Assembly: GCA_951406725.2 (NCBI GenBank) | Contig: OX597826.1 | Span: 67,518,001-67,582,000, forward strand | DNA length: 64,000 bases | From: Octopus vulgaris | Taxonomy: Eukaryota | Direction: 5' to 3' | Shown: in pieces, positions 33,414-41,146 of the stretch | Layout: every line of letters starts with the position of its first letter | Position numbering within the stretch: position 1 is the first letter of the stretch | Notes under the pieces: model-generated | Seen by the model: the letters and a program-made list of their open reading frames with translations, nothing else | Databases searched by the model: none | Told to the model about the DNA's origin: nothing | Position numbers and translations under genes: made by a program

Positions 33414-33482
33414 GGTCACACCTAGGTTTCTGATTATTTTAGCAAATAAAATATTTTGCTAGACGAATCTTCATCAGTAACC
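33414..33482 (-). ncRNA. Type I hammerhead ribozyme motif with non-canonical GUG triplet
   Basis: GGTTA-CTGATGA-stem II (GATT/AATC, TAGCAAA/TTTGCTA)-GAAAC-CTAG-GTG-TGACC. Confidence 0.7.
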
Positions 33483-33954
33483 GTGCCTTAACAATTAACA
33501 TATAATTTAGAGACGAATTACACGTGCCTTATCATTATATGTTATACTTTTTCAAAATTCAGTCACGTCTTGTCCTTACGTTCGGACCGCGGTGTAGACG
33601 AAACAGGGACAACTGAAGAAGGTGAATATTCCTTGCGTTGTATGTCTTGTACTCTGTTTTTCCGTTGTTTGAAAAAAAAGTCCGTTTCCATGTTCTTGCT
33701 TTTATGTTTTCGTTTCTCATTGTGTTCAACGTCTTTTGATGTCCTGTACCCATATATGCATGTATATATACATATAGATGTAGGTATGTGCATATATGTA
33801 TGTATATATGCATATATATATATATATACATACAAAAATATAAGGAATGGCCATAATAGGACATTCGACTCACTAGAAAGAGCAGCCAAACTCAAACCGC
33901 TAAAAGTTGTAATTCTGAACTTGAAAGAGAAATAAAAACGTTTACCCCCTTTCA

Positions 33955-34049
33955 TCTCTGGACTATGCATAGTTTCGGTAAACTTTTGTAAACAAATTAA
34001 TTAAATTAAATTAAATTTATTTACAACTGGCGTGCCTCGTCAGCAGAGA
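33955..34049 (-). ncRNA. Type I hammerhead ribozyme motif, canonical core
   Basis: TCTCTG-CTGACGA-GG...CC-GAAAC-TATGCATA-GTC-CAGAGA: perfect 6-bp stem I, palindromic stem III, 13-bp distal stem II. Confidence 0.9.
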
Positions 34050-34540
34050 AGCCAAGGACGAGTAATTTATCCACGAGGCGATGGAAATGAAGCCTCCAGT
34101 CTATATACTATAAATTTTCAAAATTTACCGCAATCGTGCGGTCTTCTCTGCAGCAAATATAAACTGCTGATTTAATTTCAAAATTAGTCAAAAATCATTA
34201 ATTAATAAATATTACAAAATTTTGTAGAATTTTTTGCTACCCTTATATATATTAATATATATATATATATATACATATAGATATATATCTCTTTTACTCT
34301 TTTACTTGTTTCAGTCATTTGACTGCGGCCATGCTGGAGCACCGCATTTAATCGAGCAACTCGACCCCGGGACTTATTCTTTTGTAAGCCCAGTACTTAG
34401 TCTATCGGTCTCTTTTGCCGAACCACTAAGTAACGGGGACATAAACACACCAGCATCGGTTGTCAAACAATGCTAGGGGGACAAACACAGACACACAAAC
34501 ACACCCACGCATATATATATATAGATATAGATATATATAT

Positions 34541-34820
34541 AATAAATATTAGGGAATAAATCCAAATTTACAGGGAAAAAATCAGATTTAGGATTAAATC
34601 CAATTTTATAGTAAAATATTATATAATATTAATTAGAGACAAAACCACTATTTTGCAAAACAAACAAGGAAAGACTTAATCAATACATAAAATTTTAATA
34701 AAAAGTAAAAAAAACCGCCACTACAATTGTTTCATGTCTTCAAATGACAATCTTCAGGTGGATTTCCGATTTTCAAATCAGTTTCAATTTAAGTGGTTTT
34801 GTCTCTAATTAATATTATAT
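34541..34820 (-). mobile_element. PLE/retrozyme-like module: leader, IR, hammerhead, IR
   Basis: 29-bp inverted repeats at 34621-34649 and 34792-34820; homologous to 38398-38690. Confidence 0.75.
34718..34761 (-). ncRNA. Minimal type I hammerhead ribozyme motif
   Basis: CCAC-CTGAAGA-T-TGTC..GACA-T-GAAAC-AATT-GTA-GTGG. Confidence 0.8.
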
Positions 34821-35102
34821 ATATATATATATATATATATATATATATATATATATATATATATATATATATATATAAATATATATATATATACATATAT
34901 ACGACGGGCTTCTTTCAGTTTCCGTCTACCAAATCCACTCAGAAGGCTTTGGTCGGCCCGAGGCTATAGTAGAAGACACCTGCCCAAGGTGCCACGCAGC
35001 GGGACTGAACCCGGAACCATGTGGTTGGTAAACAAGCTACTTGCTACACAGCCATTCCTGTATATATATATATATATATATATATATATATATATATATA
35101 TA

Positions 35103-35284
35103 TATACAGCTTCTTGTCTCTACAACAAGATATGCTTTTTAGTATAGCTTCACTCTAATCGCTACAATGTCAGCCGCAACTGCTGTCAGCGATTAGGCTT
35201 CCAGTTAGTATTGCATATCGCTGATCATTTTAGAATTCGTAGAATTGAATACAACCAGACGTATTAAATACTATTAAGCGAATG
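35103..35284 (+). repeat. 182-bp direct duplicate of 32691-32872
   Basis: Near-identical, with only a handful of substitutions. Confidence 0.92.
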
Positions 35285-35616
35285 CTGTCACTGCAATCCT
35301 AAGAGTATCTTGTTTATCATAAATGTAATAATTCCTATTATGTCAGAGACAGGTTATGATGTAGGGGAAATTTGGTTGATACTTTAAAACATATTAAGCC
35401 TGGAAGCGGGTGGGGAGTGCTAGTTTCGTAGACAACTTTTGTGTGAATGTAGTGAATTCAAACGACTACAGGGTATATGAGAGTAGATGCAGAAATGCTG
35501 CATTTTTGCCCGTTGCCTTCTCTAGGTAGAATCAAAACTCACTTAGTAGTGATATATTTAGATAATCAAACGCGCACCAAAACAGAAAGTAGTAAGTATT
35601 AAATTTTTTTTTTTTT

Positions 35617-38206: not shown

Positions 38207-38397
38207 TAATCGAAGGCTGGTTAGTTTCGTTATTTTTTTCTTCTTTTTGTCTATGTAATTTACGAGTATTACTGTCTGTGGAGATATATTGTAGCAAAAG
38301 AATTAGTAGTTTTTGATTGCTATTTCTAAATCTTCAGTATGTGGTGATGCAACTTTTTGCTAATCCCTTAATTATGTTTATATATATATATATATAA

Positions 38398-38690
38398 TAA
38401 TAAATATTAGGGAATAAATCCAAATTTACAGGGAAAAATCAGATTTAGGACTGAATCCAATTTTATAGTAAAATATTATATAATATTAATTAGAGACAAA
38501 ACTTCATAACTTAAAATTGAATAGAAGATCTGAATACCACCTGAAGAATGTCCTTAGAAGAGACACGAAACAATTGTAGTGGCGAATTTAATTTTATTTA
38601 ATTTATATAAAATTTTTTATGTATTGGATTAAGTCTTTCTTTGTTTGATTTGCATAATAGTGGTTTTGTCTCTAATTAATATTATTATAT
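38398..38690 (+). mobile_element. PLE/retrozyme-like module: leader, IR, hammerhead, IR
   Basis: IRs at 38481-38502 and 38663-38684; the interior is the reverse-complement homolog of the 34650-34791 interior. Confidence 0.75.
38537..38582 (+). ncRNA. Minimal type I hammerhead ribozyme motif
   Basis: CCAC-CTGAAGA-A-TGTC..GACA-C-GAAAC-AATT-GTA-GTGG. Confidence 0.82.
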
Positions 38691-38772
38691 ATATATATAT
38701 ATATATATATATATATATATATATATATTTGTTGTGAAAGATTTTTTTATGTGAAGTCGTGTGTTGAAACAG

Positions 38773-38952
38773 ATATTGTTATATTTCGGAATGGTCATTT
38801 TGTCAGTTTAGCCAAAGAACTCTGGCCGAAATAAGATTAATATTAATGTAAAAAATAAATAACACTGAAGCAAAGTAACACCAAATATATAGTGCGTGTG
38901 TTTTTTTTATTGGCTAAACTGACAAAATGACCATTCCGAAATATAACAATAT
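38773..38952. repeat. 43-bp perfect inverted repeat module between (TA)n tracts
   Basis: Arms at 38773-38815 and 38910-38952; a solo arm recurs at about 53902-53945. Confidence 0.9.
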
Positions 38953-40694
38953 ATATATATATATATATATATATATATGCAGACACAGACACAGACACGC
39001 ACACACACACACACGCGCGCGCGCGCGCGCACGCAAACGCACAGGCACACACAAATTTGCATTGAGAAGAAAGAACATCAGATTTTACCTAGCTTATTAA
39101 GTGCTTTTCGAATTTTCTTGTAGTTTGAATCAGGTAAGCTCACATTTCCATCATTAACGTTACTAAGCAATTAGAGTCTCACCTTCTGGATGAAGTAATG
39201 TTGGCGAGTGTTGGAGATTTCTTATGGGAGGTGAATAAAACATAATGTTTGTATTTAAAATCATTCGCCTTCAGACGTAGACTGTGTTTCTTTTTCAAAG
39301 TTAAATCTTTCTTGGAACTGATGTCATCGAATCAGTCAAACATAGAGAACAGTAAGACTGATTATATATAACCACATATATAAATATATATATATATATG
39401 TATGAATATTTTGCGTTTATACATACATTCATACACAGATATATAAACGTATAAATTACATGCACACATGCATATATGTATGTATAAATATATGTATGTA
39501 TGAATATTGTATGAGTATATATACGTATATAATTTTATATGTACATATATATATATATGTATAATTTTATATATATGTATAAATTTATAAATATAATTTT
39601 CTATGCATATATATCTATGCATATATACATACACACACACACATACATACATACATACATATATATATATATATATATATATATATTTAAATATATATAT
39701 ACATATATATATATATATTTAAACGCATGAACACTCTTGTTTACGAAATAGACAAAATAGCATTCAATGCATGAATTAACGTTTATAATTTGCATCTTGG
39801 AGCTGAATGTTCTCAAATTACCACTGCTAGCATCAGATTTCCGCTCCTCAGGCAGTGGTGTAAACTGAACTGCGCAACAACTGTATAGAAGCGACCGACC
39901 AAAAGAGAAACAAAAAAAAAAAAAAAAAGAAATGGAAACATTTCAAAATGTTATATGGTATTTATCTGAATAAAAAATAGATAACAGCTTTTTGAAGATT
40001 CAAGAAAAGAGAAAAGAGAAAAGAGAAAACAAACAAAGAATGACTGGGAAAGAAAACACAGATGACATAATAAATGACAAAAATAATTAAAATAACAAAA
40101 TTAAACTTAGAATGGAAATTGAAAGTTAACGAATAAAAATGAAAATATTTAAAGAACGAAATGAAGGAAGCAGTAATGCTAAATACATCGTTTTGCTTCT
40201 AGGGATCATTATTAGAATTTGAGTTTTTAAAAAAAAGCTACCTACGCAAGGAATTATTCTGTGTTCAAACCGACTGCAGGGCACTTATAATTATGTTTCT
40301 TCTATTGTAGCATAGGATTGATCGAGGCTTTAGGAGTACAATTTCAGTAGACAAAAATCTGTTTCACAAAATGAACACAACACAGATATACATGCATTTG
40401 ACTATTGGTGTGTACATAATTATACATACATATATACGCAAGCACCCACACATCCATACATGTATATATATATTTGTAGATTATATATGTATATACTTAC
40501 AGGTATATACATATATATATATTTGCACACACACACTCATTTATATACATAGAAATATATATATATATACATATATATATACATATATATATATATATAT
40601 ATATACATATACATATTATCATAATTATTAGGGAAATTTACTTCCAAGAACTGAGGAAAAATCGATAGGGGTAGTGAAAAATGTTGAGGAATCC

Positions 40695-40794
40695 AAACCT
40701 GAAGATTGGGAGTATGTCGACCCGAGTAAGTATTGAAACTAGATACCACGTATCTAATCAATACCGACGTACTTTCATGAAACACGGGTAGTCT
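40695..40794 (+). ncRNA. Type I hammerhead ribozyme motif with extended stem II
   Basis: AAAC-CTGAAGA-T-TGGGAGTATGTCG...CGACGTACTTTCA-T-GAAAC-ACGG-GTA-GTCT; inner helices GTATTGA/TCAATAC and TAGATAC/GTATCTA; stem I has one mismatch. Confidence 0.75.
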
Positions 40795-41060
40795 TATAAA
40801 CGGAAAATACAGGATTCAGAATAGATATAGTTAGTATAAGATTTAATTTTTAATATTTCATGGAGTGTTCGGGTATAAAATCTATCACTGTTCATTGAGT
40901 TGATGGTGGTTCTGTCTCTAAAATTACTTTTTGCATATATATATTTACACACACACACACACACACACACACACACACACACACACATATATATATATAT
41001 ATATATATATATATATATATATATATATAAATAAATAAGCAACATGTTATCAAATAGTAA

Positions 41061-41146
41061 TGCAATACGACCGTTTCAAGCGGCTCCATTTAATTGAACA
41101 ATGTAATCGTTACATCATTTTAAATGCAGAGCCATCTTCAGCTGCA
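41061..41146 (-). ncRNA. Type I hammerhead ribozyme motif with extended stem II
   Basis: TGCAG-CTGAAGA-TGGCTC..CATTTAA..AATGATGTAA/TTACATTGTT..TTAAATG-GAGCCG-CTT-GAAAC-GGTC-GTA-TTGCA; 3 extra nt before GAAA. Confidence 0.65.

Follow-up and report, generated by a model that had tools for sequence, protein, structure and literature searches.

Seven type I hammerhead ribozyme motifs lie within positions 33414–41147 of a 64 kb window of the Octopus vulgaris genome (the window is the whole stretch analysed, 64,000 nucleotides of contig OX597826.1, from 67,518,001 to 67,582,000). They very probably mark seven separate insertions of the Penelope-like element (PLE) type: four would be ends of longer elements that code for an endonuclease and likely belong to the Hydra clade, and the other three short non-coding units likely mobilised by such elements. 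The class is already known, and the cluster by itself adds little to it. The motifs sampled in this genome provide a large and diverse natural set of minimal hammerheads, including homologous families that differ by compensatory changes.

According to the mechanism proposed, a PLE reverse transcriptase (RT)/endonuclease would nick a (TA)n tract, and copying would begin downstream of the ribozyme, at either of two internal sites, giving two 3' ends and a "tail". Copying would usually halt early, and an inverted second copy would often be added. In source copies the ribozyme may act as a homodimer, via its palindromic stem III, to process the tandem precursor RNA; in solitary copies such as these seven it would be a passenger. 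With ~10^5 such motifs in the genome, the local pile-up likely represents an extreme outcome of TA-dependent insertion. A broader claim, by which these ~10^5 hammerheads fall into dozens of PLE-derived families, including Hydra elements with long untranslated regions (UTRs) and ~100-nt tails and radiating circular-RNA units of 467–540 nt, and by which the interval is a long-preferred landing site, is rather unlikely as a whole.

Detection of the hammerheads

Both strands of the whole window were scanned with a descriptor, which identified seven hammerheads of the C3-G8 core type, and no C3-G8 motif elsewhere in the 64 kb. All seven loci reported by a first-pass annotation of this DNA were recovered, within one base and on the strands given there. 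They are called m1 to m7 in map order, and start at 33414, 33955, 34718 (minus strand), 38150, 38537, 40695 (plus strand) and 41061 (minus strand). The descriptor was relaxed stepwise, the strict form catching none of the seven, a looser one five, the final one all; the final form was used in the control. In 200 local block-wise dinucleotide shuffles, a mean of 0.055 motifs per window (maximum 1) was found at score >=11, and of 0.2 (maximum 2) at the loosest cut. The bare core pattern has 11 matches, against 2.86 expected. No Rfam family matched the window at gathering scores, and at E<=10 the region 32800–41800 gave microsatellite noise only, and no hammerhead family.

The presence of seven hammerhead motifs, far above chance, is confirmed. 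Chance matches in AT-rich, low-complexity DNA would accord with the blindness of Rfam to all seven, and with a descriptor loosened until every one was caught, but this reading deserves next to no weight: shuffled windows never exceed two motifs, family-majority sequences give back perfect helices, and a perfect 4-nt inner palindrome, unasked by the pattern, is found in 74 of the first 100 genome matches listed (counted by eye), where chance predicts about 1 in 16.

Two decayed hammerhead-bearing PLE ends, one of the U3-A8 core type, reside outside the cluster at 27354–27587 (plus strand) and 44087–44205 (minus strand), with the hammerheads themselves near 27357 and 44190, respectively. Ribozyme-less remnants of such families were noticed at 21131, 27707, 55447 and 63943. 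At 33600–33660, on the plus strand, a CTGAAGA core with short flanking stems and no GAAA was spotted by eye, and is possibly an eighth, degenerate hammerhead.

Dispersed families and their relatedness

Each of the seven modules is a dispersed repeat. The best other copy in the genome is 98% identical to the window sequence for m3, 97% for m5, 96% for m2, 94% for m6, 91% for m4, 88–89% for m1 and 86% for m7. Window copies are therefore 2–14% diverged from their nearest relatives, and likely differ in age of insertion. Searches of the octopus genome at the DNA level returned 969, 2006, 387, 1869, 1360 and 3392 first-look candidates, 40 of which were scored in each case; these figures are not copy numbers. 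The top 25–30 loci per family, including the copy in the window, were examined (L019/L027 and L036/L038 are the same places returned twice). A 16-base motif of the m3/m5 lineage has 2,059 matches in the genome, and 2 in a reversed control. In less than 1 Mb of mostly targeted sample, 190 motif matches fall into 25 hammerhead sequence clusters.

The first-pass annotation had sorted the seven motifs into six unrelated families, m3 and m5 being the only homologous pair. These two are indeed of one lineage, but homology extends further. Families m1 and m2 are alignable across the whole unit (score 117, shuffles 32±4, z 20), and m5 and m6 in their 3' parts (z 8); the remaining 13 family pairs have z <= 2, and the seven motifs are thus assigned by alignment to four lineages.

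Homologous families differ by changes which preserve the helices. Between m1 and m2, five of the six stem I pairs are altered on both sides with pairing kept, and stem III is another palindrome. In the m3/m5 lineage, helix pairs hold in 50–52 of 52 motifs, the 5' strands being partly fixed by the search, and the palindrome carries a double change in two of the 52. The hammerhead core is intact in 29/29, 21/25, 24/25, 16/25, 18/25 and 18/25 copies of the six families. Among copies picked by motif likeness, conservation is higher at core columns than elsewhere in each of the six, the difference being slight in m2. The conservation of core and pairing points to selection on the source elements.

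Marks of Penelope-like insertion

In each of the six families, copies have either of two discrete 3' termini, ~85–120 nt apart; in the m5 family the second is found chiefly in inverted pieces. A (TA)n tract adjoins the 3' end in 26/30 m5, 23/25 m2, 15/25 m6, 15/25 m4, 16/25 m1 and 17/25 m7 copies. An inverted piece of the element itself abuts the 5' end in 25/29 m5, 15/24 m2, 9/25 m6, 9/25 m4, 5/25 m1 and 13/25 m7 copies. The 5' ends are scattered in all families except m5, most copies of which start sharply 28–38 nt before the core (the upper value is set by the extent of the reference), as suggests a fixed, internally deleted source element. Short copies of the m5 family (L001–L030) appear to splice a distant piece of the parent UTR beside the ribozyme.

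These features, namely 5' truncation, inverted partner, optional tail and microsatellite target, make up the insertion architecture of endonuclease-bearing (EN+) PLEs, as described in the sections of Craig et al. (PMC8557442) on insertion structure. The two 3' ends may be due to two internal reverse-transcription starts downstream of the ribozyme, as in Poseidon of Anolis carolinensis, in which, according to the parts of the study that deal with insertion, two start sites define the tail and ribozyme cleavage is unneeded for insertion in vitro (PMC11167929). Poseidon differs, on the same account, in belonging to another clade, in having an ORF (open reading frame) which begins within the ribozyme, and in its shorter tail. 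The two-start-site rule for tails is seen here across six families at once.

In the window, m1 (33265–33561, minus strand) is a 5'-truncated copy of an ORF-less ~467-nt head-to-tail unit, and stops at the first 3' terminus of its family, beside (TA)n. Its homologue m2 (33835–34245, minus strand), also a ~467-nt unit, has a body extending to ~34212 and an inverted piece of its own tail at 34213–34245. Element m3 (34541–34815, minus strand) is a short form of a Hydra-like PLE 3' end, with full tail and a 24-bp inverted piece (34792–34815). Element m4 (38108–38378, plus strand), a truncated copy of an ORF-less ~540-nt head-to-tail unit, has its (TA)n tract in common with m5 (38392–38685, plus strand), which belongs to the sister subfamily of m3 and is made of an inverted tail piece (38392–38502) and a body (38501–38685). 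Element m6 (40618–40931, plus strand) includes an inverted tail piece (40618–40663) and a Hydra-like PLE 3' end, homologous to m5 in its 3' part. It is joined via one (CA)n(TA)n tract to m7 (41033–41325, minus strand), a PLE 3' end with body at 41033–41269 and inverted tail piece at 41268–41325, the parent of which has a 3' UTR of ~1.5 kb. A further element at 38729–38948, which contains a perfect 39-bp inverted repeat that terminates at (TA)n, has no hammerhead and is probably another PLE end.

The idea that m3 and m5, on opposite strands, are two arms of one insertion was discarded: both come with an inverted piece and (TA)n flanks of their own, and their subfamilies differ. A ~70-bp direct repeat noticed by eye (32800–32872 and 35212–35284) brackets the first three elements, and is probably another small repeat family.

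The earlier description of PLE- or retrozyme-type, microsatellite-associated elements, with many families in the genome, agrees with the insertion marks, the (TA)n ends and the genome-wide copies. The modules do sit beside (TA)n tracts; a length of 200–400 bp does not apply to all, as the family of m7 is far longer.

Coding parents and clade assignment

Widely spaced inverted pairs carrying the 16-base motif of the m3/m5 lineage include two loci, L238 and L239, with insertions ~96% alike. Each features a 5'-truncated ORF, followed by a UTR of ~3.7–3.9 kb and a hammerhead end 91–95% identical to m3 and 81–82% identical to the m5 body. In L239 a frame of 471 aa ends in a C-terminal endonuclease with CxCX5C, CxxC and CxH motifs and no CCHH (translation read by eye); Atlas look-alikes for this ORF include GIY-YIG clusters at 0.95–0.96. 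Locus L243 has a decayed, similar endonuclease, in which the Hydra motifs are only partly kept, then 1.5 kb of UTR and an m7 end (81.7% identical). For m6 the link is a chain of overlaps: endonuclease pieces 60–70% identical to L239 lie in L251 and L080 ~500 nt before a segment joined elsewhere to the m6 ribozyme. A C-terminal endonuclease is thus placed upstream of the hammerhead end directly in L238, L239 and L243, and by overlap in L251 and L080. Every parent found lacks its 5' part, the truncation falling within the RT thumb or beyond it. Elements m3, m5, m6 and m7 trace to kilobase, ORF-bearing PLEs, as ends or deletion forms; "short", the term of the first-pass annotation, suits m1, m2 and m4 (units of 467–540 nt) and not these four. 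No PLE coding remnant was seen in the 64 kb window itself.

The parents of m3/m5, m6 and m7 likely belong to the Hydra clade. As described in the portions of PMC8557442 dealing with this clade, Hydra EN+ PLEs share with them the C-terminal endonuclease, CxCX5C linker, CxxC/CxH motifs and hammerhead, as well as (TA)n targets, inverted 5'-truncated partner and optional tail. In contrast, Hydra elements described there are generally <3 kb, and 3' UTRs alone measure ~1.0, 1.5 and 3.9 kb here; tails are 85–120 nt long rather than the 30–40 bp stated for PLEs; short internally deleted forms appear common, and RT motifs were not seen in the truncated parents. With the octopus families, Hydra-like PLEs would come to include long-UTR elements of high copy number.

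Other clades were considered. Neptune-like elements with a GIY-YIG endonuclease, the clade being marked by a CX2-5CxxC linker, were rejected as parents: Neptune-like ORFs of 781 aa do not share the 3' end of the modules but end in another 3' terminus, with a U3-A8 motif, and their few BLAST matches to the modules are neighbouring insertions. Naiad elements have an N-terminal endonuclease and no canonical hammerhead is expected in them; here the endonuclease is C-terminal and hammerheads are present.

Some observations concern these other elements. A young Neptune-like PLE (L162–L182, e.g. L167:2668, plus strand) has many open 781-aa frames, a U3-A8 hammerhead near the 3' end and a tail of ~40 nt. 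U3-A8 motifs, counted with no shuffle control, are as common as C3-G8 motifs (7 vs 6 in a 200 kb random sample). A candidate hammerhead with A3-U8 core and 2-bp stem II occurs in the 3' UTR of another Neptune-like family (L176:350, minus strand, and 2050, plus strand; L019:1071, plus strand), with six matches in the loci examined. L238 and L239 have inverted arms of 2.7–2.9 kb, 98–99% identical, which consist of low-complexity 3' UTR with internal repeats; their read-through RNA would form a long double-stranded hairpin.

No published account of these elements was found under octopus Penelope, cephalopod hammerheads or molluscan Hydra clade; file S1 of PMC8557442 may hold related families. Recently active PLE families are described in a repeat annotation of Octopus vulgaris, and the word "ribozyme" is absent from its main text, as far as this was accessible (PMC13282606).

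Non-coding units

Families m1, m2 and m4 are non-coding head-to-tail units of ~467–540 nt, with one hammerhead each. Loci were ranked by likeness to the truncated window copies. Upstream of the body, the own tail recurs at a period of 449–470 nt in 13/25 m2 loci; at 441–469 nt in 7/25 m1 loci, and at longer periods in three more; at 516–543 nt in 3/25 m4 loci, and at 354 in one more. An endonuclease fragment upstream of m1 in L127 was set aside as a chance neighbour, because none of 19 other copies runs into the m1 unit (620 nt inspected).

The three are retrozyme-like, to judge from their organization, and likely both descend from PLEs and are mobilised by endonuclease-coding ones. Non-LTR retrozymes (lacking long terminal repeats) are regarded as non-autonomous PLE derivatives in the relevant sections of Cervera and de la Pena 2020 (PMC7229834). 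The units of these authors, and of the preprint by Li, Clavereau and Pollet 2026 (10.64898/2026.07.22.740005), are in the parts concerned similarly non-coding, AT-rich and head-to-tail, a few hundred bases long, with one type I hammerhead each. Compared with the description in PMC7229834, m1, m2 and m4, known here from DNA, occur mostly as partial tandems, dispersed and bearing inversions and tails of the PLE type, and two-ribozyme tandems are rare among them.

An active non-LTR retrozyme cycle for m1, m2 and m4, in which monomers are released by cleavage, closed into circles and used as circular RNA templates, is doubtful. The head-to-tail arrangement and the lack of a detected ORF would fit, as would the circular folds, moderately more stable than those of shuffles (z -2.6, -2.8 and -5.9, respectively), but read-through PLE-type RNA also yields partial tandems, and the fold z-scores include the hairpins of the ribozyme itself. 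Two ribozymes of the same family in direct tandem occur in one m2 and one m1 locus, as expected of such units, but they are few (1/24 m2, 1/25 m1 and 0/25 m4 loci; none in the window), and long arrays were not seen among these loci. The families would be suited to asking if circular templates serve retrozyme-like units, and by which autonomous PLE these are mobilised.

Clustering and background density

Background samples were 200 kb in 20 evenly spaced 10-kb stretches, 268 kb of outer flanks, and 441 kb scanned with a slightly different scanner. They contain 7 motifs (in four of the 20 stretches, two as inverted pairs), 8 and 11, respectively. Against ~0.3 per 10 kb in the background, the local density of 9 per 10 kb is ~30 times higher. 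Extrapolation to a 2.8-Gb genome gives ~98,000 motifs (39,000–202,000); one sub-pattern alone has 18,763 genome matches, against 1,711 in the control. The probability that seven points span <=7733 nt is ~2e-5, and the other 56 kb of the window have no intact motif. Under uniform insertion the local enrichment is a real outlier. As a description, the "hotspot" of the first-pass annotation is apt; no cause for it has emerged.

The pile-up is probably chance acting on patchy TA targets, plus the selection of the window. TA tracts vary from 0 to 29 per 10 kb across the random sample. Self-reinforcing clumping beside existing copies was rejected, as motifs of other families occur near copies elsewhere at 0.20, 0.41 and 0.14 per 10 kb at 0–500, 500–1000 and 1000–1500 nt, with no neighbour excess.

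Several results weigh against seven separate Hydra-like and PLE-mobilised insertions gathered in this way. At 0.30–0.35 motifs per 10 kb and uniform insertion, only 0.015–0.04 clusters of seven in 7.7 kb are expected genome-wide; given also the lack of neighbour excess elsewhere, chance alone therefore fits poorly. No ORF tied to m1, m2 or m4 units was found in the loci examined, and no partner protein. None of these loci yielded a full-length parent that retains the RT catalytic core. Pfam found no RT or GIY-YIG match in the L239 ORF, for which two protein searches scored nothing and PDB gave none; the Hydra call consequently rests on motifs. The parent link of m7 comes from the single locus L243, where pairwise similarity to L239 is low (33% over 57 aa).

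As concerns clustering, and with the identities of the elements accepted, the interval might instead have long been a genuine insertion hotspot, for instance chromatin open in the germline or a transposon trap, which draws or retains PLE-type insertions. We regard this as a serious, if less probable, alternative. The low expectation for such clusters and the steep contrast with the rest of the window speak for it, as do the spread of insertion ages and the TA-richest 8 kb of the window, which hold 20 tracts and no intact motif. The background is however drawn from few motifs (7 in 200 kb, 11 in 441 kb): at the upper density bound 5 clusters of seven are expected, and if the two tract-sharing pairs are counted once, 8–18 clusters of five genome-wide. 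Moreover, the window owes its selection to its striking appearance, the seven do not share one orientation (4 minus, 3 plus), and the rest of the window has five to six more remnants of such families.

Ribozyme competence

The CUGANGA/GAAA core with helices I and II is present in all seven window motifs, an NUH cleavage triplet in six, and five motifs keep both without the damage described below. Hammerheads m3 (34718–34761, minus strand), m4 (38150–38206, plus strand; minimal stem III), m5 (38537–38582, plus strand) and m7 (41060–41147, minus strand; palindrome imperfect, with a G-U pair) have intact core and GUA triplet. The m2 hammerhead (33955–34049, minus strand) features a 6-bp stem I, a GUC triplet and the longest palindrome, and departs from the family majority at one point in stem II. 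In the m1 hammerhead (33414–33482, minus strand) the triplet is GUG, and GUA in its family. NUG triplets are not cleaved by hammerheads, and m1 is likely inactive because NUH is lost. The m6 hammerhead (40695–40794, plus strand), which has a long branched stem II, is likely impaired: stem I, unable to close, and the palindrome are each one change off the family majority.

Palindromic stems III self-pair fully in six of the seven (-5.8 to -15.9 kcal/mol); that of m6 is disrupted in the window copy, though not in its family. Isolated stem III segments formed no hairpin on folding; m2 can form a 4-bp stem III by itself, and is the best candidate for monomer cleavage. The first position after A9 is unpaired in six of the seven window copies, and variable in the m3/m5 lineage. 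The next stem II pair, at the G10.1-C11.1 position, is G-C in m1, m4 and m7, and U-A in m3, m5 and m6.

Minimal hammerheads of metazoan PLEs, as presented in the pertinent parts of Cervera and De la Pena 2014 (PMC4209133), are similarly of type I, with short palindromic helix III and, as in six of the seven window copies, an unpaired base at the foot of helix II; they too form many sequence families per genome, mostly as solitary motifs or inverted pairs 100–700 bp apart, and include a U3-A8 core variant. In contrast to these, several helices II are here long or branched (up to 72 nt), and G10.1-C11.1 is not kept in m3, m5 and m6.

Most of the seven would likely not cut a passing transcript. 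The earlier proposal that any transcript through the interval, on either strand, could be self-cleaved finds no support: m1 and m6 are damaged, stem III is weak in monomers, and no motif has a same-strand partner with the same palindrome. That the cluster is a host ribozyme array cutting any crossing transcript is very unlikely. The core and triplet retained in five motifs and the stem III of m2 could be claimed for it, but in all seven monomers the hammerhead fold is never the minimum, lying 0.5–7.4 kcal/mol above the free minimum. Same-strand palindromes cross-pair poorly, the best at -4.2 kcal/mol, against the self-pairs of the six motifs other than m6, and the sole palindrome in common, that of m3 and m5, is on opposite strands. 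Reading of the ORF list by eye identified no host gene in the window. The published minimal PLE hammerheads are inactive as monomers and weak as dimers, as stated in the parts of PMC4209133 and of a review (PMC6765202) on their activity; the section of the 2026 preprint on retrozymes (10.64898/2026.07.22.740005) has one of nine dimers cut.

Other features of the window

Positions 1–4814 are taken up by ~4.8 kb of a 26-bp satellite, within which a 22-bp array is nested; a frame labelled by eye as integrase-like follows at 4793–5293. Interspersed repeats in the window resemble, presumably, octopus SINEs (short interspersed elements). An open frame of 238 codons at 11326–12042, on the plus strand, covers a 21-bp Ala/Thr/Asp/Pro tandem repeat, and may be a low-complexity exon or a minisatellite.

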